Source: a virus (Duplodnaviria; Heunggongvirae; Uroviricota; Caudoviricetes). From it: a DNA stretch of 12,646 bases. The notes under the pieces were generated by a model. It made no database searches. It saw nothing but the letters and a program-made list of their open reading frames with translations, and was not told the origin of the DNA. Position numbers and translations under genes: made by a program. Shown in pieces: positions 1-12,252 of the stretch. The DNA lies in the IMG/VR virus record IMGVR_UViG_2531839662_000020. One strand, written 5' to 3'. Each line of letters begins with the position of its first letter. Within the stretch, counting starts at the first letter, position 1.

Positions 1-474
1 AGTTTGCTCCTGCCATAACGTGAAGAAGCAATGACCTGGTGGTCCGTGACTTCCCTACGCTGGCATTATCCAGATCAGGTGATACGGGTATTTCTTACTG
101 ATTTTTGTTATCAGTTGATAATTAATAAGTTTTTCAGCAAACAAGAATTAAAAACTTCAAAACTGACCACACAACTGACCACACATTTTGTTGAAGCTCT
201 ACGAACAAAGACGAACAATAACAAACAAAAGGGAAATTTGCTGGCAGTTTTGCTTAACCGTTATCATTTTTCGGCTATCCGTTATCAAGCTGGTGGATGA
301 TCACGGATAACCCGTTATGGGAATCCCCATATCGGCATCATGCCCACCAGCATGAAGTATTTTTCGCGGATGTAAAAATTTGACGGGGCGGGCGGTCCCA
401 TAAGCAATGGGGGGGTAGGGATTCCGCTCCCCCCCCCTCCCGAATGCAATTTTTCTTATATATATACAAAACAG

Positions 475-629
475 TGCGGGTTATGCGGGTTAGCGGGTTA
501 TCTTCGCGTGCTAAGTATTTTTTATTCTTTAATATCAATGCGTTAAAAAATGATATGTTTGAATATTAGCCAAAACGTAACCCGCAAGACATTCAAAATA
601 ACCCGCAAATACCCCCCAAATAACCCACA
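475..629. repeat. Iteron cluster B: 3 tandem TGCGGGTTA repeats, AT-rich spacer, 3 inverted TAACCCGCA copies at about 21-bp phasing
   Basis: Direct copies at 475-483, 484-492 and 493-501. AT-rich stretch 502-577. Inverted copies at 578-586, 599-607 and 621-629 (last one degenerate, TAACCCACA). Same 9-mer as cluster A at 9086-9219. Confidence 0.7.
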
Positions 630-915
630 ACCCCATCAGGAAAATGGGGCCAGTGATGCCACCGAACGGCTGAATCTGGTAACGTTCTGTTGCCTGGTTG
701 CAGTTTGCGGGTCAGCAATACTGACGCACAAAGTTAGCCGTATGTGGCTGTGCGTCCACCAGCTACGCCGGAATGGGGTATTCCGTTTCAACGGAACAGG
801 TATGACGAATATGATCGCACCTTCTCCCGAAAACGGGTTTGCCTGTTTCGGGAAAACGGGCACATGAAGCTGCATAGACATTTTCACTATTCAGGATCTG
901 GCGGGGGAGTTTCTC

Positions 916-1481: not shown

Positions 1482-3143
1482 TTATACCCCATCAAACGCC
1501 GCAAGCCGCTCTTTGTGGCTGTCGCTCATATCGAATGCAAATTCCTCATGTTCTGCCTGGAATGTGCCAAACGCCATCAGCGCCGCAACGCTCGGGTCTA
1601 TCTTGTTGGATGATTTTTTCTTGTTCGGCTTGATATTGGCGTTCGCGTCACTCTGCATCACAACATTACTCATTGACCAGGCCAGCACCGGATCGCCACG
1701 ATGCACAATCACCTTCCGGTTAACAAAAACTTCGAACGATTTCGCCGCCGGACTGAAACGAAGGTATGTTTGCGGGAACGGCTCCACCTCAAATCCTGCC
1801 CCCTGTAGCTGCGTCCTCAGGTGCGTGGCGTTCCATGTATCGAAGCCCACCAGCCTGATATTGAAATTCTCTGCATCCGCCATGATGTCATCACGGATAC
1901 GGTCATAATCAATGCAGTCACCCGGTGTTGTGCGTATCCAGCCCGCCTTTACCCACTGGCGATAGATGGCGCGGTTTTTATTGGCGGGGTTCTGTAGCTG
2001 AAACTCCGGCAGATAGTGACGGGAAACCAGCATAATCTTTTTACCGACCGGAAAGGCATAGCACACGCTGGAAATATCGCTGGTTGATGATAAGTCCAGC
2101 CCCGCGTAGCACTCCTGCCCGTATAAATCCGCCTCCGCGAACGTTCCGGCGCACTCCGCCCATGCACCGTTACCCATCCACGGCGTGGCCCCCTGACACC
2201 AGATATTGAATCGCTTAGTGAGCATTTCCACCCACTGCGACGGAATACCCCGCGCTTTCTGGATGGTTGAGGCCAGTTTTTCACGATCGACGGAAACATC
2301 GATATTGGGATTCGCCTTTATCCACATCGCCGGATCGTCAACCTCGCTTTCATCATCCAGCTCGTAAATCAGCACGAACATGGATTCGTTCACCTCTTCA
2401 CCATCCAGTATCTGGCAGCAATAGTCGTAGTGTTGTTTACAGGCTGAAACAACGTTGCTCCCCGATGTGGTGATGGCAAATAATAACCCCTCCGGACGCG
2501 CCCCCATTCCCAGTTCAAGCGCGGAATAAACCCCGTTGTCAGGGTGCAGGTGATATTCATCCACAATGGCAAGACTCGGGTTTGTACCTTCAATGGTTGC
2601 CGCTTTTGCTGCCAGTGGCTTTAACAGGCTGTTGGTTTTCGGGTGTATCACCTTGTGTGCCTGAATATTTACCCGCTTTCGCAACGGTCGGGATAAAAGG
2701 CACATCTGACGCGCATCATCAAACACGATCCGCGCCTGATCACGACTCACGGCGGCGGTGTAAATATCCTGCTGCCCGTTTTCCATAACCAGAAACCAGT
2801 TAGCCAGGATAGCGGCGACCGTGGATTTGGCATTTTTTCGCGGCACTTCAATGAATGCGCTGGTGTATTTGCGCCGTCCGGTGGCCTTAACCTTAAAGCC
2901 CAGGATGCACGCAAAGGCGAACTGCTGCCACGGCTCCAGCTCAATGGGGCTACCGCGCATTGCGCCTTTTACGTGCGGACACACCCTGGAAAAGGCAATA
3001 AACCGCTCCACGACCTCCGGATCGAACGTGTAAAGGGGGTTTTCAAGGTCAGAAAAATACCGTTTAACGGCCTGTTTCAGTCGTTTACAGGCCGTAATTT
3101 TGCCGTTTTTTACGCCTTCTGCGTACTCATGCCAGGCGGTCAA
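1482..3143 (-). CDS. terL: Terminase large subunit (Terminase_1-like)
   Basis: 553-aa ORF with LEPWQ...F motif and P-loop-like VPRKNAKST near the N-terminus, then a nuclease-type C-terminal half. Apparent TTG start preceded by GAGGA. Overlaps the small terminase by 17 nt. Confidence 0.88.
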   Translation of the reverse strand: MTAWHEYAEGVKNGKITACKRLKQAVKRYFSDLENPLYTFDPEVVERFIAFSRVCPHVKGAMRGSPIELEPWQQFAFACILGFKVKATGRRKYTSAFIEVPRKNAKSTVAAILANWFLVMENGQQDIYTAAVSRDQARIVFDDARQMCLLSRPLRKRVNIQAHKVIHPKTNSLLKPLAAKAATIEGTNPSLAIVDEYHLHPDNGVYSALELGMGARPEGLLFAITTSGSNVVSACKQHYDYCCQILDGEEVNESMFVLIYELDDESEVDDPAMWIKANPNIDVSVDREKLASTIQKARGIPSQWVEMLTKRFNIWCQGATPWMGNGAWAECAGTFAEADLYGQECYAGLDLSSTSDISSVCYAFPVGKKIMLVSRHYLPEFQLQNPANKNRAIYRQWVKAGWIRTTPGDCIDYDRIRDDIMADAENFNIRLVGFDTWNATHLRTQLQGAGFEVEPFPQTYLRFSPAAKSFEVFVNRKVIVHRGDPVLAWSMSNVVMQSDANANIKPNKKKSSNKIDPSVAALMAFGTFQAEHEEFAFDMSDSHKERLAAFDGV

Positions 3144-6322: not shown

Positions 6323-6334
6323 CCTTACTCATGA

Positions 6335-7504
6335 CTAGCCAGCTTTCATTTCCAGAATTTTGATGGCGTTTGAATCCACCACACCACCGCCCAGATATTT
6401 ATCCGTGTGGACCTTGTAGAATCCGGGTTCAGTAATGTTGTCCGGTCGGGTGCGAATCCCTGTTACATGATCAACGATGAAATAACCACGACTGAAATCG
6501 CCAACCGCTAGCGGTGCTTTTCCTGCGCCGATGTCCGGCATGGACTCCAGGCAGAAAACAGGACGACCAAGCAACATATCCGGCGCACCTTCTTTAAGGC
6601 TGTCGCGCCAGATATAATCGCCATTCTCATTTTTCAGCTTCTGTAGTGTCCCTGCCGTGCCCGAGTTCATCACCCAGACGGCATTTTTGCGGTATTTCGC
6701 TTTCAGCTTGTAGAGAATGTCGATCAGTTCGTCCGCTGTAATGGCGGTTCCACTTGCCGCTACCACTTTTTCAATGGTGCCAAAAGCGCGGGTTTTGTCA
6801 CTGGTCGCCGCACGGGTGTAAGCCATGAAGCCTTTCGGCTTGCCGTTACCGTCGCCATTAACAAAATCATCCTCTTCGGTGCTGGCGAACGTGTCGGCAA
6901 TTTCGGAGGATAACCAGCCCAAAATATCCACCTCTGAAAAATCCAGGATTTCCTGCGTGGTTTTCGGGTAGGCGTAGATCTGATTCAGCTTGATGGTTAC
7001 ACGTTCAATTTTCGGGGTGTTGGTTTCACTACGTGCGCTGCCTTCTGTGCCTCGTCCTACAGTTGCGCCGCCAGTGGAAACCAGTTTCTGAAACTCATTT
7101 GATTTTGCGGTCTTCACGGTCGCGATCACGCGCATAACACTGTCATCCTGTAGCTGGCGCATGACTTCGCGATCAAGCTCAGGAATTACGGTATATCCGC
7201 CATCCCTGCCGCTGTCAGTGCTGGTGGACAGTGATCGCACATCTCCGGTTACGATGTAGTTACGCAATTCATCAGATGATAATTTCTGGATGCCCGTTCC
7301 TGGCTTGCTGCGTTCTTCATCAGCCACAGACTCGAGGCGGTAAATTTCTGTGTCGAGGGAATCGGCTTTTGCACGCAGTTCATCAAACTGTTTGCCCTCG
7401 TCATCGTTCAGGCTGCGGTTTTCACTGTCGGCTTTTTCCAGCAGGGATCGCATCTGGTTTTTCAGGGCGGTTTTTTGCTGGCGGAGTTCGATTAATTTCT
7501 TCAT
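6335..7504 (-). CDS. Major capsid protein, HK97 fold, with N-terminal delta/scaffold domain
   Basis: 389 aa. N-terminal about 100 aa is charged and coiled-coil-like (delta domain), followed by an HK97-like MCP body. First gene after the candidate late promoter. Confidence 0.85.
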   Translation of the reverse strand: MKKLIELRQQKTALKNQMRSLLEKADSENRSLNDDEGKQFDELRAKADSLDTEIYRLESVADEERSKPGTGIQKLSSDELRNYIVTGDVRSLSTSTDSGRDGGYTVIPELDREVMRQLQDDSVMRVIATVKTAKSNEFQKLVSTGGATVGRGTEGSARSETNTPKIERVTIKLNQIYAYPKTTQEILDFSEVDILGWLSSEIADTFASTEEDDFVNGDGNGKPKGFMAYTRAATSDKTRAFGTIEKVVAASGTAITADELIDILYKLKAKYRKNAVWVMNSGTAGTLQKLKNENGDYIWRDSLKEGAPDMLLGRPVFCLESMPDIGAGKAPLAVGDFSRGYFIVDHVTGIRTRPDNITEPGFYKVHTDKYLGGGVVDSNAIKILEMKAG

Positions 7505-7653
7505 GAAGGTTTTCTCGTATTGGTTAAGATTCAGGACGTGAAACCAACACGGAGGGAGCGCCGCCCGACACTCTCGGCATCTCGCAGATCAACCCGGCAT
7601 CGCGCAGGGGGTCAGGCGGCATTGTGGCGGCTCACGTCTGAGTGCCACACGCC

Positions 7654-7726
7654 AACATATACATAAAAATCAGTATGTAAACATCAGCCAGAATCACCGA
7701 ACAACCTGGAACAACCACGAACAAAT
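7654..7726 (-). promoter_or_regulatory. Candidate activator-dependent late promoter for the capsid operon
   Basis: On the minus strand: -35 TTTACA (7676-7681), 16-bp spacer, -10 TATGTT (7654-7659). Upstream are three direct repeats GGTTGTTC / GGTTGTTC / ATTTGTTC with 10-bp phasing (plus-strand GAACAACC at 7699-7706 and 7709-7716, GAACAAAT at 7719-7726). Confidence 0.35.
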
Positions 7727-7741
7727 AATTTACAAAACCTG

Positions 7742-7770
7742 AAAAAAAGACCTGGAGAAAATCCAGGCCT
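7742..7770 (-). terminator. Rho-independent terminator ending the early/replication operon
   Basis: On the minus-strand transcript: stem 7762-7770 pairs with 7748-7756 (9 bp, one mismatch), loop 7757-7761, then a U7 run (plus-strand A7 at 7742-7748). Lies 9 nt after the stop of the 82-aa gene. Confidence 0.65.
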
Positions 7771-7778
7771 TTATCGCT

Positions 7779-8027
7779 TTATTGTTTCACTGGATCCCGC
7801 ATTCTGCGTCTTATTTTCCACAGATATTCGATCATCGCTTCCACCTGCTCACGATTGGTTGCGAAAATTTCCCCGGTCAGTGAGCTGCGCAGAAAATCAT
7901 GATGATCCACAACAAACAACGCATCGGAAGAAAGCAGACGGCGATATTTTTTTGCTGTCGTGGTTTCCAGATCATCAAAACCATGAAACTTTTTATGTTG
8001 CTGGACTTCTTCAAATGTCACTGGCAT
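7779..8027 (-). CDS. Hypothetical protein, 82 aa, translationally coupled to the ProQ/FinO gene
   Basis: ATG start at 8027 overlaps the upstream gene's 3' end by 10 nt. No family recognised. Followed by the terminator. Confidence 0.5.
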   Translation of the reverse strand: MPVTFEEVQQHKKFHGFDDLETTTAKKYRRLLSSDALFVVDHHDFLRSSLTGEIFATNREQVEAMIEYLWKIRRRMRDPVKQ

Positions 8028-8560
8028 GTATCCCCCTTTGCTGCCCGGCGCTGGCGCTTGTGCTTCTCATTCAGCGCCATCAGCCGCGTTTCTGCCTCCT
8101 GCTGTTCCTGTGGTGTCACTTCCCCACATGGCTGGCCTTTCAGGTCGTATCGTACCCCACCAGCAACCAGGGCGCGGTAATAGCGCGGAGACTGCGCATA
8201 AGATGCCAGCGTCGCACGTAATGCCCCCGGCCCGAATGCCAGCCCCCTGACGGCGAGATCCTGCATCAGGTCGTCGAATATCCCCACCTTAAGCGGCTTC
8301 GGTGCTTCCCTGTTGAATAAGTCAGGCCACATCTCAGTGAGGCGGTTAACGCGCCTGCGGTTTTTGCGCTGGCGTTTGGTCATATGCCGCCACGGTGTCA
8401 CCCCTGTGGGCTGCCCTTTGCGGCTCTGCTGTGCGTTCTGATTGCCGGGTATCACTTTATGCGCCGATGTGGTTTTATCCCGCTCTTGCGCCGCCTGCGT
8501 CGTTTTCTGCGGCGTGCCGTAAATGCCTTTCGGTTTTCGGTTAATGGTCAGCTTTGTCAT
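8018..8560 (-). CDS. ProQ/FinO-domain RNA-binding protein with basic N-terminal extension
   Basis: C-terminal two-thirds (WPDLFNREAPKPLKVGIFDDL...LRATLASYAQSPRYYRALVAGGVRYDLKGQPCGEVTPQEQQEA) matches the ProQ/FinO N-terminal domain pattern recalled from E. coli ProQ. N-terminal about 70 aa is Lys/Arg/Gln-rich. AGGGGAAGG RBS. Confidence 0.75.
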   Translation of the reverse strand: MTKLTINRKPKGIYGTPQKTTQAAQERDKTTSAHKVIPGNQNAQQSRKGQPTGVTPWRHMTKRQRKNRRRVNRLTEMWPDLFNREAPKPLKVGIFDDLMQDLAVRGLAFGPGALRATLASYAQSPRYYRALVAGGVRYDLKGQPCGEVTPQEQQEAETRLMALNEKHKRQRRAAKGDTCQ

Positions 8561-8596
8561 GCCTTCCCCTGTAATTACTCTGTTCGCTGTTGTGAA

Positions 8597-9022: not shown

Positions 9023-9085
9023 GCTGTCTGCTCTCCGGTTTTAACGTTGATGGTTACGCTTGTTTACACCCTTACGGTGAAATTC

Positions 9086-9219
9086 TGCGGGTTATAATCG
9101 CACTTTTGCGGGTTATAACTGCCGTTTTGCGGGTTACGTGCGGGTTATTGATTTCCTTTTTATTCATACAGTTAATGCACTTATATACATGATAACCCGC
9201 ATAACCCGCATAACCCGCA
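9086..9219. repeat. Iteron cluster A: 4 direct TGCGGGTTA(T/C) repeats (spacing 21/21/11 bp), AT-rich spacer, 3 tandem inverted ATAACCCGC
   Basis: Direct copies at 9086-9095, 9107-9116, 9128-9137 and 9139-9148. AT-rich stretch 9149-9191. Inverted tandem copies across 9192-9219. Lies in the 220-bp gap between the primase-helicase stop and ssb start. Confidence 0.75.
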
Positions 9220-9241: not shown

Positions 9242-11365
9242 TTAATCTTCTGCCTCAGGCTGGAACATCAGCACGTAAAAAACATGCTGCTTCCCCCCAA
9301 TTTTGCCGAGCGCCTTTTTCTTGTAACGGCGATCGTTACCCGCTTCCAGCATTCCGGCAGCACTCAACGCGCGGGCAAAGTGAGACGGATTAAATCCCTG
9401 TGCTATCTCACCCTCAAATACATGCGGGAACGTGTAAAAACGGAACTCGTCATCTTCGTTTCTGATACTCCCCTTTCTGTATCCGGCAAGTTCTTTAATC
9501 GGTAAATCACGCTCGTCGGTATTGGGCCACGGAAGGTATCTGCTGAATCCGAACGACGCTAAAAAAGCTTCTGCCTGTTCAACCATCTGTTTAAATTCCC
9601 TGTTACCCGTGCCGAACTCCTTCACCCAGGCATTAAAATTATGCTGTATGGCATCGCGGCATTCCTGCTCATCCCAGCCAGTAACATGACCTGAAAGCAC
9701 AAGCGCGGCCTCCAGTATGGCAAATCGCTCCCCCACACGGTGAACCTGTTCGCCGTAGCTCTCCGGTATCAGGTTGCGCCACCGCTCACGGCATGTCCTT
9801 ACCGTGTCCTTTGCCTCCTGCTGGTGTTCTGCCAGCCATTTAACCCACTCACGACCCGCCGCCCCGTGATTTTCTGTCCAGGCATCCTTTAACGCGTCTG
9901 CGTGCGCCTTTCCGGTGCTGTATTCGTGAAATTGCGTGGCTTTTTCCATCGGAACGTTAAGCAGGCGGACAAGCTGCCCCGCTTTGACTTTTATCCCCTC
10001 CGTTTTGAGGAATGTCTCAACGTCCATTTCTCCGGTGCTGATTGCCACCGTGCGCCAGTGTTTGATCTCCCTGTTGCCGCCGTCCTTCGCCCCCTGTAAT
10101 TTCCCCGAACCGTTAAACAGCGTATAGGCTGACGTGGACACCTCCCGCGCGTTTCCGGCCTGGCCTATTTCATCCAGGGGTAAAAGCCCGTCATTGTGTG
10201 CCTCTGCTTCGTTGGCGATACCTAACGCTGTGCCGTACCAGGTCAGCCGCTGCGCGTCCGGCTCTCCCCATAAACTTGATGCGATGTTCTGTGTGGTGGT
10301 TTTCCCTGCCGATGACTGTTCGAAAAGATGTACCCCGAAGCCGTCAGCGCCCACCAGCCCGATTAATGGTGCGGATAACGATACCGCCACACCCAGCATC
10401 ATGGACGGATTACCACCAGCCAGCCGCGCAACGATATCGCGCCAGCCCTCCGCCGTTCCTGCCACGGAATAGCCATTAACAGCAGCCGTTTTTCCGGTAA
10501 ACAGGACTGGCTTTTCGCAATCACCAATGACCGAACCGTCCGGCATGATGTACGCGCCAAAATGCCAGCCCGTTGTTGTGCTTAACTGCCATTCCTCATG
10601 GCTTCCGCTTAACTGCATCCAGTCAGCCAGGATAGCCCTGTATTTACCGTTGGTTGTTACGTTCAGTCCGTGGTCTTTCAGCAACCGCCAGCCGTCACGG
10701 TCGCCAATGCCACCGCACGGAACCGCCATTGTGATGACTTCATGGTTTGCTAATTTTTTCCAGCGCATCACGCGGTAATGCTCTTTACCGATTGTCCCCG
10801 TTCCCAGTAGTTCAAGCGGGGAACATAACCACGTCTCAGGCCGGATAATTTCGCCTGACTGCTTATCCACTTTTGGCGTTACCCAGAAAACACCATCGGC
10901 GCGACTTTCAACGCGGGGCTTTAATTCATCATCGCCCTGGATTTCTGTGATTTTTTTCTTTAAGGGCAACACCAGACTTTCCCCGCGCTCGTATTCGTCT
11001 TTGAGGCGAGGCAACTGGTCGGATAAATCCGCCGGGCTGATGTCAGTTATCCCCGCGTATTCGTATACGGTCTTCACGCCAGCCACAGCCAGCAACGTGA
11101 CGATCTGTGTAAGGCTACGTTCAGTGATGTGCCCTGCGCGGTAAACACGCACACACTGACGGCTATCATCAATAATTTGATAACCGGTAATATCTTTCAG
11201 GTGTTCATCTGACAGAACGACAGGCGGCACATTGTCGGCGGCAATATGCTTACCTGCCCATTCCTGCCACTCTTTCGCATGGCTCCACGCATCACTACCC
11301 GCAAAGATGATAACCTCCGTCATTTTGTCGGCTGGCTGGTGCTTTAAGTTTGGTGCGCGCTTCAT
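9242..11365 (-). CDS. Replicative primase-helicase (toprim-like N-terminus, P-loop NTPase core; DUF927-like)
   Basis: 707 aa. Walker A-like SSAGKTTT in the central region. Overall resemblance to satellite and prophage primase/helicase replication proteins. ATGA overlap with the upstream small gene. Followed by iterons. Confidence 0.8.
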   Translation of the reverse strand: MKRAPNLKHQPADKMTEVIIFAGSDAWSHAKEWQEWAGKHIAADNVPPVVLSDEHLKDITGYQIIDDSRQCVRVYRAGHITERSLTQIVTLLAVAGVKTVYEYAGITDISPADLSDQLPRLKDEYERGESLVLPLKKKITEIQGDDELKPRVESRADGVFWVTPKVDKQSGEIIRPETWLCSPLELLGTGTIGKEHYRVMRWKKLANHEVITMAVPCGGIGDRDGWRLLKDHGLNVTTNGKYRAILADWMQLSGSHEEWQLSTTTGWHFGAYIMPDGSVIGDCEKPVLFTGKTAAVNGYSVAGTAEGWRDIVARLAGGNPSMMLGVAVSLSAPLIGLVGADGFGVHLFEQSSAGKTTTQNIASSLWGEPDAQRLTWYGTALGIANEAEAHNDGLLPLDEIGQAGNAREVSTSAYTLFNGSGKLQGAKDGGNREIKHWRTVAISTGEMDVETFLKTEGIKVKAGQLVRLLNVPMEKATQFHEYSTGKAHADALKDAWTENHGAAGREWVKWLAEHQQEAKDTVRTCRERWRNLIPESYGEQVHRVGERFAILEAALVLSGHVTGWDEQECRDAIQHNFNAWVKEFGTGNREFKQMVEQAEAFLASFGFSRYLPWPNTDERDLPIKELAGYRKGSIRNEDDEFRFYTFPHVFEGEIAQGFNPSHFARALSAAGMLEAGNDRRYKKKALGKIGGKQHVFYVLMFQPEAED

Positions 11366-11900: not shown

Positions 11901-12252
11901 AATCGCCCCCGCCATTTTCACAATCAGCAATCAGGATGGCTTTTGCCTCATTCAGCGCCATATCAGCACTAAATTGCATAACAGCCAGTGAGTGAGGAAC
12001 GAAAGCCCCGGCATATTCTGTTTCGCTGGTGGCCTCAATGGTAATCACACGCGGTTGTGCCGTGCTCAGGGCGATAAAACGCCAGATGTATTTATTCAGG
12101 TTGTGCAAGTCCCGCCCTTGCGGGTGTGTGGTATGATTTAACATAGCTACCTCGATAATCTTGCTATCGTTGGTGGTTAGAAGCCCGGTTAGTGTTAGCG
12201 CACTGCCGGGTTTCGTCGTTTGTATTTCAATAAAACCATTGGTGTGTTTCAT
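11890..12252 (-). CDS. Hypothetical protein, 120 aa, first gene of the early operon (alternative start at 12144 gives 84 aa)
   Basis: 3' portion of the 247-aa track ORF. The part upstream of 12252 is antisense to the plus-strand gene and low-complexity, so is rejected. ATG at 12252 lacks an SD; the ATG at 12144 has GAGGT 5 nt upstream. Confidence 0.45.
   Translation of the reverse strand: MKHTNGFIEIQTTKPGSALTLTGLLTTNDSKIIEVAMLNHTTHPQGRDLHNLNKYIWRFIALSTAQPRVITIEATSETEYAGAFVPHSLAVMQFSADMALNEAKAILIADCENGGGDYAK

Follow-up and report, generated by a model that had tools for sequence, protein, structure and literature searches.

Phage-inducible chromosomal islands of the capsid-forming type (cf-PICIs) make their own capsids and take only tails from phages, and the switch of their packaging operon is undescribed in the cf-PICI papers. 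What, then, turns on capsid production in such an island? The question is addressed here for a 12,646-nucleotide (nt) stretch of viral DNA, IMG/VR record IMGVR_UViG_2531839662_000020 (referred to as the window, meaning the whole stretch that was analyzed), which is a cf-PICI satellite of E. coli, inserted in the thiM riboswitch. The site of interest sits between an intrinsic terminator and the capsid–protease–portal–HNH–TerS–TerL operon, on the minus strand, which carries almost every gene of the window. A first-pass annotation had placed a weak σ70-like promoter there, preceded by three phased repeats. Because the repeat motif also flanks the integration sites and the gene for the master regulator AlpA, we propose that excision and capsid production are probably linked through a single small protein that binds DNA.

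Anatomy of the capsid promoter

The core promoter is present as proposed, with the −35-like TTTACA at 7681–7676 and the −10-like TATGTT at 7659–7654 separated by 16 nt, and a predicted start near 7648. It is weak, with 9 of 12 consensus positions and a 16-nt spacer. Upstream are three direct TTGTTC repeats at exact 10-bp spacing (7724–7719, 7714–7709 and 7704–7699, all on the minus strand). With a start near 7648 these hexamers fall at about −76 to −71, −66 to −61 and −56 to −51, in agreement with the earlier estimate of their position. The wording originally given for the repeat holds for two of the three units, which read GGTTGTTC, but not for unit 1, which reads ATTTGTTC. The hexamers and repeats had thus been recognized, but a conserved TTTGTAAAT box just upstream of them (7728–7736, minus strand) had been overlooked. 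Read along the minus strand, the order is TTTTGTAAATTAT, then TTGTTCGTGG, TTGTTCCAGG and TTGTTCGGTG, then ATTCTGGCTGATG, TTTACA, 16 nt, TATGTT, GGCGT and GTGGCAC. Unit 3 is separated from the −35 by 17 nt, leaving the units clear of the core promoter.

The pattern TTGTTC-N4-TTGTTC-N4-TTGTTC with up to three mismatches is expected 0.02 times in the shuffled window, and was found at two places (7699–7724 and 193–228). The hexamer pair alone is within chance (1 found vs. 0.6 expected in 800 bp). The promoter hexamers are therefore taken as real because they are conserved across related elements, and not by count alone.

The intrinsic terminator, an inverted repeat with an 11-bp stem and a T-run at 7741–7772 (minus strand), would end the upstream replication and accessory unit. 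Its RNA fold has a predicted energy of −19.5 kcal/mol (z = −3.4 against shuffles), and a consensus terminator scanner gave no call at 7741–7772.

Conservation among related islands

The promoter was compared in 84 loci, comprising 80 loci that encode capsid homologues and four E. coli islands. A recurrent layout was found, consisting of TTTGTAAAT-N3, three 10-bp units, 13 nt, TTTAC(A/T/G), 16 nt and TAT(C/G)TT. Counted from start to start, box and −35 lie a constant 55 nt apart in E. coli and in Enterobacter, Kosakonia, Winslowiella, Serratia and Testudinibacter, in surrounding sequence that has diverged. The box occurs once per element, in the same place, in about 40 of the 84 loci, and essentially nowhere else in those loci.

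Conservation was measured in fixed register over 11 promoters (type A). The box, which is the most conserved upstream element, and the −35 both reached 1.79 bits per position and the −10 reached 1.66, compared to 0.34 in the 10 nt upstream of the box; the unit-1 block had 1.35. Within the 10-bp units, positions 2–6 (T-k-T-T-C) are conserved at 1.3–1.6 bits and positions 9–10 at 0.1–0.3 bits, so that the constraint on the repeats is periodic with the helical repeat. As in the activator-dependent class of σ70 promoters, the spacing falls within 16–18 bp with an imperfect consensus, and the hexamers are conserved in diverged loci, from E. coli to Testudinibacter. The repeats are likely to constitute a protein-binding operator.

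The region is matched by 484 E. coli genomes. In many of these, including O157:H7, only a block of about 58 bp aligns (88–97% identity), made up of the repeats, the box and the T-run, with the flanks unaligned. A 39-bp block containing the box and the three repeats is kept with one substitution in the O157:H7 islands, where the flanks have diverged. In E. coli 042, UMNF18 and EA2, the space between terminator and box has taken up accessory genes, and the box and repeats remain beside the core promoter.

This interval (7737–7778 in the window) is an insertion hot spot whose accessory genes run in the opposite orientation, as seen also at 6330–6930 of locus L003, 8723–9331 of L006 and 6340–7700 of L004. 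The insert contains a 168-residue open reading frame in E. coli 042 and UMNF18, and two open reading frames in EA2.

A second group of promoters (type B), found in Rahnella, Serratia, Erwinia and Xenorhabdus, keeps the box and has TCATGTTTAC-type units. These lie about 120–230 nt upstream of the capsid ATG (loci L012, L014, L015 and L022–L024, plus the Xenorhabdus loci). In type B a strong GC hairpin with a T-run, resembling a terminator, is present exactly at the expected position of the −35, and the −10 of the Xenorhabdus promoters resembles an extended TGtTAAAT.

A structured leader in the capsid mRNA

The predicted transcript has a 144-nt 5′ leader (7505–7648, minus strand) that would fold into hairpin 1 (7624–7648) and hairpin 2 (7562–7621). 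RNAalifold, applied to 22 sequences, gave 18 pairs, 11 of which have compensatory double changes. In hairpin 1, three pairs covary and no pair is broken. Its first base lies 6 nt past the −10, which supports the predicted start site, because a transcript from TATGTT would begin there. A nearly invariant GGTTTC(A)CGTC...ACG-GAAACC stem ends 5–9 nt before the capsid ATG and covers the only purine-rich stretch. Since this last stem covers a weak ribosome-binding region, the leader suggests translational control of the capsid gene. An Rfam search with the leader and the whole window gave no match to the leader, and only sub-threshold matches to the thiamine pyrophosphate (TPP) riboswitch and symR. 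A ProQ/FinO-like island protein encoded just upstream might act on the leader.

The terminator upstream, the fixed layout across genera, the retention of box and repeats beside the core promoter after insertions, and the covarying leader together argue that this is very probably a real promoter for the capsid operon, of the weak σ70 kind and with a start near 7648.

The repeat motif in the att arms and upstream of alpA

The second array in the window, TTGTTT-N4-TTGTTC-N4-TTGTTC-N4-AGCTTC at 193–228 (minus strand), lies in the att arm distal to int, about 100–130 bp from the att core. It adjoins two tandem 12-mers, TGTGTGGTCAGT (162–185, minus strand), which are probable integrase arm-type sites; the pair is also present upstream of int in the UMNF18 island, where two TTGTTC arrays lie between the att core and int. 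The O157, EA2 and CFT073 islands have arrays upstream of int as well, and all four islands carry arrays in both att arms, beside tandem 12-mers. Each arm consists of the array, then about 7 bp, then the two 12-mers. An additional array of five to six units occupies the int–alpA spacer of O157 and CFT073, and the O157 copy equals the capsid-promoter array at 24 of 26 positions. In a total of about 0.5 Mb from the islands, strict arrays are nearly confined to the int-proximal arm, the int–alpA spacer, the capsid promoter and the distal arm.

This distribution affects how the promoter is understood. The promoter reading stands, given the conserved −35 and −10, the terminator and the covarying hairpin, and the 10-nt periodicity of the repeats, in fixed register with the −35, is in keeping with an upstream activator site. 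The repeats are not a dedicated late-promoter element, since the motif is also found in the att arms and upstream of alpA. For the same reason, the motif points to the island's own AlpA and not to a late activator of the helper phage.

The sequence of the 12-mers changes from island to island (TGTGTGGTCAGT in the window and UMNF18, GGTGTAGTTAAT in O157 and CFT073, TGTGCAGTCAG in EA2 and TGTGTATTGCAC in 2014C-3075) and varies with the integrase, whereas TTGTTC is unchanged among integrases that are 55–67% identical. In satellite P4, tandem 12-mers are annotated as attP arm repeats on both arms. The 12-mers of the islands are thus likely to be integrase arm sites, because they are integrase-specific and have the same architecture as the P4 arm repeats, and the TTGTTC arrays are likely to be the sites of a second, more conserved protein. 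P4 also has TCGTCC-N4-TCTTCC-N4-TTGTCC, phased at 10 bp, between core and int, the same interval in which the UMNF18 island has its two arrays. Unlike a cf-PICI, P4 has no capsid genes.

The motif in both att arms, in islands whose modules are shuffled by recombination, could also mean that the repeats themselves are integrase arm-type or recombination sites, and that the capsid copy is the vestige of a rearrangement with no role in transcription. However, it is the adjoining 12-mers that follow the integrase and match the P4 arm repeats, while TTGTTC stays constant, and in many genera the units near the capsid gene show conservation in register with the −35. We consider a vestige very improbable.

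Likewise, the repeats might be replication-origin iterons of the DUF927 primase-helicase, as in P4, where the type-I/ori1 iterons (CTGTTCACC on one strand) contain TGTTC, have a spacing of 10–11 bp and are found immediately upstream of sid; in some Pasteurellaceae loci, GTGTTCACTA occurs three times ahead of the capsid gene. The origin in the window, however, is directly downstream of rep and uses three copies of GCGGGTTAT, with an AT-rich stretch and inverted copies, and the same TTGTTC block accompanies replication proteins of three unrelated kinds (DUF927, a primase and a RepA-type helicase). With GCGGGTTAT as the Rep iteron and the block present alongside unrelated Reps, we exclude replication iterons and give this explanation hardly any credence.

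The GCGGGTTAT iterons form two clusters with AT-rich centers, one at 9080–9215, beside rep, and one at about 475–630 (minus strand), in a 1.1-kb non-coding tail near the distal att end. This layout recalls the ori1 and crr of P4.

When viral contigs were scanned for the exact pattern, the matches listed included the same three contexts, together with many unrelated iteron families in which TTGTTC recurs at 10 bp. The motif alone is therefore not diagnostic outside the island context. At least four TTGTTCC-type units at 10-bp spacing, in some cases followed by an inverted copy, are found in L092, L094, L096 and about 15 other viral contigs, and also in L100, L128, L145 and others. Since unrelated contig families carry such arrays, phased GAACAA/TTGTTC arrays may be a widespread type of operator in mobile elements.

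AlpA as the candidate binder

An AlpA-family protein (PF05930, E = 1.9e-16) is encoded in the UMNF18 island, and also in the O157, EA2 and CFT073 islands. AlpA is required for induction and transfer of EcCICFT073 and EcCIEDL933, which belong to the same element family as the window, and activates PICI genes and its own promoter (PMC6092414; 10.1101/2022.09.08.507074). The primers of the AlpA-activated PalpA-lacZ plasmid (PMC6092414, supplement) map to 8128–8583 of EcCICFT073 (locus L091), a fragment that spans the six-unit array at 8186–8251. Directionality factors bind direct repeats with a spacing of one helical turn, and such proteins often also regulate transcription (PMC7498355, PMC3936717). 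The islands have the features of directionality-factor arrays, namely three phased repeats, the same motif beside arm sites in the att arms, and an encoded protein of the family.

AlpA sequences form two clades. All seven of the clade-1 islands have TTGTTC-type capsid promoters, and strict arm arrays were found in 4 of 6 clade-1 islands vs. 0 of 19 clade-2 islands, although phylogeny confounds this comparison of clades. Of the possible binders, AlpA is the best candidate because it belongs to the Xis/Vis family, because such factors use phased repeats, and because of its role in induction, the array at PalpA and the clade pattern. We infer that AlpA binds TTGTTC and that it activates rather than represses; that it binds the repeats and activates the packaging operon is, in our estimate, an even chance.

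Besides the confounding by phylogeny, several observations weigh against AlpA. The alpA gene is outside the window, and the int–alpA array is inverted and about 290–340 bp from the alpA ATG. Four islands (L020, L034, L013 and that of 2014C-3075, L005) have clade-2 or divergent AlpA, yet their promoters are of type A; that of L005 shares 100% identity with the promoter of the window, but the arms of L005 have no good arrays. The promoter array matches the arm of its own island at 14.15 of 20 positions and the arms of other islands at 13.6, which is hardly any difference, by a crude best-20-mer score too noisy to be decisive. Furthermore, binding need not mean activation, since P4 Vis represses the PLL promoter. 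Finally, the box is more conserved than the repeats and is common to promoters with other units (type B, CATGTTTAC). As the box outlasts the repeats and spans differing unit types, a second factor may be involved there, and the box may be a nucleation site or the site of that factor.

If both promoter and operator are real, the binder could still be something other than AlpA: an excisionase or late activator of the helper phage (HK106-type helpers), another island protein (the 82-residue phrog_1957 protein, a PerC-like regulator or a roughly 240-residue protein near int), or a host factor such as Fis at the box and unit 1. The sharing of the box between promoters with differing units and islands with differing AlpA clades would fit this, as would the identical promoter that the 2014C-3075 island retains despite its very different AlpA-like proteins. 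P2 Cox is a precedent for a helper protein that activates a satellite promoter (PMC3936717). However, the block was found by BLAST in no phage of the phage collection, where only the capsid-coding part matched. For the island proteins, phrog_1957 usually lies directly upstream of the promoter, while PerC is absent from the window, where it is replaced by the ProQ/FinO gene. GTAAATTATTTGTTC fits the Fis core G-N3-A-W5-T-N3-C, but a match to this core is expected by chance about once per 8 kb. The motif in the att arms of the island and the AlpA-responsive fragment are more simply explained by a recombination and regulation protein of the island itself, and another binder appears unlikely, though well short of negligible. 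The phrog_1957 protein was considered separately as an activator and rejected: its structure is predicted with confidence, but resembles no known structure and shows no DNA-binding fold.

Alternatively, AlpA or a similar factor might bind with a repressive or architectural effect, by bending the DNA, limiting read-through or delaying capsid expression. Repression is seen with P4 Vis and Int at the int promoter (PMC7286903) and with Cox at Pc, where the array is of the same kind (PMC3936717), and the array at alpA is inverted and far from the gene. However, the units at the capsid promoter stop 17 nt short of the −35 and so leave the core promoter clear, which is weak (9/12, 16-nt spacer), and the fixed register of the units with the −35 across taxa is a prediction of face-of-the-helix activation. 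In addition, AlpA activates PICI genes (PMC6092414). A repressive or purely architectural effect is decidedly unlikely, and activation by AlpA is the reading followed below.

In the mechanism that we propose, the operator would consist of the TTTGTAAAT box and three TkTTC units, one per helical turn and centered near −54, −64 and −74, bound cooperatively by a small winged-helix protein, most likely AlpA (Xis/Vis family, PF05930). The helper phage would trigger expression of alpA, and AlpA would amplify itself through the equivalent array upstream of its gene. On the arm arrays, beside the integrase arm sites, AlpA would act with Int to promote excision, and on the array at −51 to −76 it would recruit or stabilize RNA polymerase at the weak capsid promoter. 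Excision and capsid production would therefore be switched on by a single protein. The leader, with its last stem over the weak ribosome-binding region, may add a translational layer. Whether promoter and leader make up one conserved, previously undescribed two-layer unit of capsid control in the cf-PICIs of Enterobacterales and Pasteurellales, in which AlpA (possibly with a second factor at the TTTGTAAAT box) ties the capsid to excision and the leader gates translation, is doubtful but worth stating.

Comparison with known systems

In function, the nearest analogues are P2 Cox acting at the P4 PLL promoter and P4 Vis. Work by Polo in 1996 and Cali in 2004 reportedly had Vis regulating the P4 late promoters, PLL and Psid, and binding two boxes between int and the attP core. 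Vis is a homologue of PICI AlpA, is needed for excision (PMC6092414) and regulates the int promoter (PMC7286903). Like the proposed binder, P2 Cox is a winged-helix directionality factor that acts on direct repeats 10–11 bp apart, upstream of a satellite promoter that it activates, and also acts at att (PMC3936717); the P4 annotation has three 10-bp repeats at 9176–9205 (L009). Unlike that binder, which is likely to be encoded by the satellite and to recognize TTGTTC, Cox is encoded by the helper and recognizes TTAAAG(N)CA. The target of P4 PLL is a set of regulators, whereas here it is an operon with the complete set of capsid and terminase genes; the box and leader that go with the promoter also set this case apart from Cox and Vis.

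In lambda, X1, X1.5 and X2 are three adjacent sites, overlapped by a Fis site. Apl of phage 186 and lambda Xis (with Fis) also use direct repeats spaced by one helical turn, and act both in excision and in transcription (PMC7498355). They differ in being repressors or architectural proteins; activation of a structural operon from such an array is not their known role.

The late promoters of P2 and P4 that respond to Ogr and Delta are similar in being weak σ70 promoters of capsid-related operons with an upstream activator site near −55. Their site, however, is a TGT-N12-ACA dyad bound by a zinc-finger activator, and a promoter of this type was rejected here, as there is no such dyad at −40 to −80 (7690–7730, minus strand) and the sites are direct repeats. 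The AlpA antiterminator model of P. aeruginosa was set aside as irrelevant, since the protein of that name is larger and Q-like, and its GGGACG site lies between −35 and −10. In the cf-PICI and AlpA papers (PMC6092414; 10.1101/2022.09.08.507074), neither an AlpA operator nor a promoter of the cf-PICI packaging operon is described, and the word "promoter" is absent from the cf-PICI papers.

Gene content of the island

The hallmarks of cf-PICIs are int, alpA, rep, capsid, protease, portal, connectors, HNH, TerS and TerL in this order, the absence of tail and lysis genes, and a size of 10–18 kb (10.1101/2022.09.08.507074). The gene content and order here match the description of EcCIEDL933, by Pfam and by the annotation of UMNF18. 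In the order of transcription, Pfam identified DUF4222, DUF927, SSB and ProQ/FinO, followed by the 82-residue protein, a 274-bp gap, and capsid, protease, portal, connector, HNH, TerS and TerL. The DUF927 primase-helicase is encoded at 9242–11365, the ProQ/FinO-family RNA-binding protein at 8018–8560, and the 82-residue phrog_1957 protein, usually the last gene ahead of the terminator and promoter, at 7779–8027. The packaging operon begins with the HK97-type major capsid gene (6335–7504; Pfam Phage_capsid, E = 7.5e-72), includes further matches to Peptidase_S78, Phage_portal, Terminase_4 and TerL, and ends at 1482 with TerL (1482–3143). The capsid, phrog_1957 and ProQ/FinO genes are on the minus strand. 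The ProQ/FinO gene occupies the place where the O157, 042 and CFT073 islands have a PerC-family regulator.

A near-identical island lies between thiM and rcnR in E. coli UMNF18, and adds a P4-type integrase and the AlpA-family protein at its far end. Positions 1–95 of the window are chromosomal, 100% identical in E. coli genomes and annotated there as a riboswitch (the thiM TPP riboswitch). The 14-bp att core AGAAATACCCGTAT (82–95, minus strand), which forms the junction with this riboswitch, is present at both ends of the UMNF18 island. Within 35–126 (minus strand), the last ≈30 nt of the island (CUGAUAAC...AUCAG hairpin, then UAAGA) partly mimic the displaced 5′ half of the TPP aptamer, and the Rfam TPP model scores 31.7 bits against a gathering score of 54.3. 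Because the end of the island mimics half of the aptamer at this sub-threshold score, thiM regulation may be altered in lysogens. Another weak match, to the SymR antitoxin RNA (12145–12217, plus strand; 33.6 bits against a gathering score of 61), falls in a divergent regulatory region near the Icd-like and YlcI/YnfO genes.

The 2014C-3075 island (NZ_CP027447.1, 1372976–1395476) splits a prophage large-terminase gene and has a different integrase, two AlpA-like genes and an identical capsid promoter; this resembles the helper-embedded PICIs (PMC10111431). The cos site is unmapped in the cf-PICI papers, including 10.1101/2022.09.08.507074; by analogy with HK97-like phages, it should be near terS and not at the capsid promoter.

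Implications for satellite biology

If the repeats serve as AlpA sites, a single protein induced by the helper would govern its own amplification, the excision of the island and the production of capsids, which would explain the timing of satellite particle assembly. AlpA, whose site is undefined in the AlpA and PICI papers, would gain a testable operator in TTGTTC with 10-bp phasing. The motif could then help in the prediction of AlpA regulons and att arms across thousands of islands, and in the design of reporters or blocks of satellite transfer.
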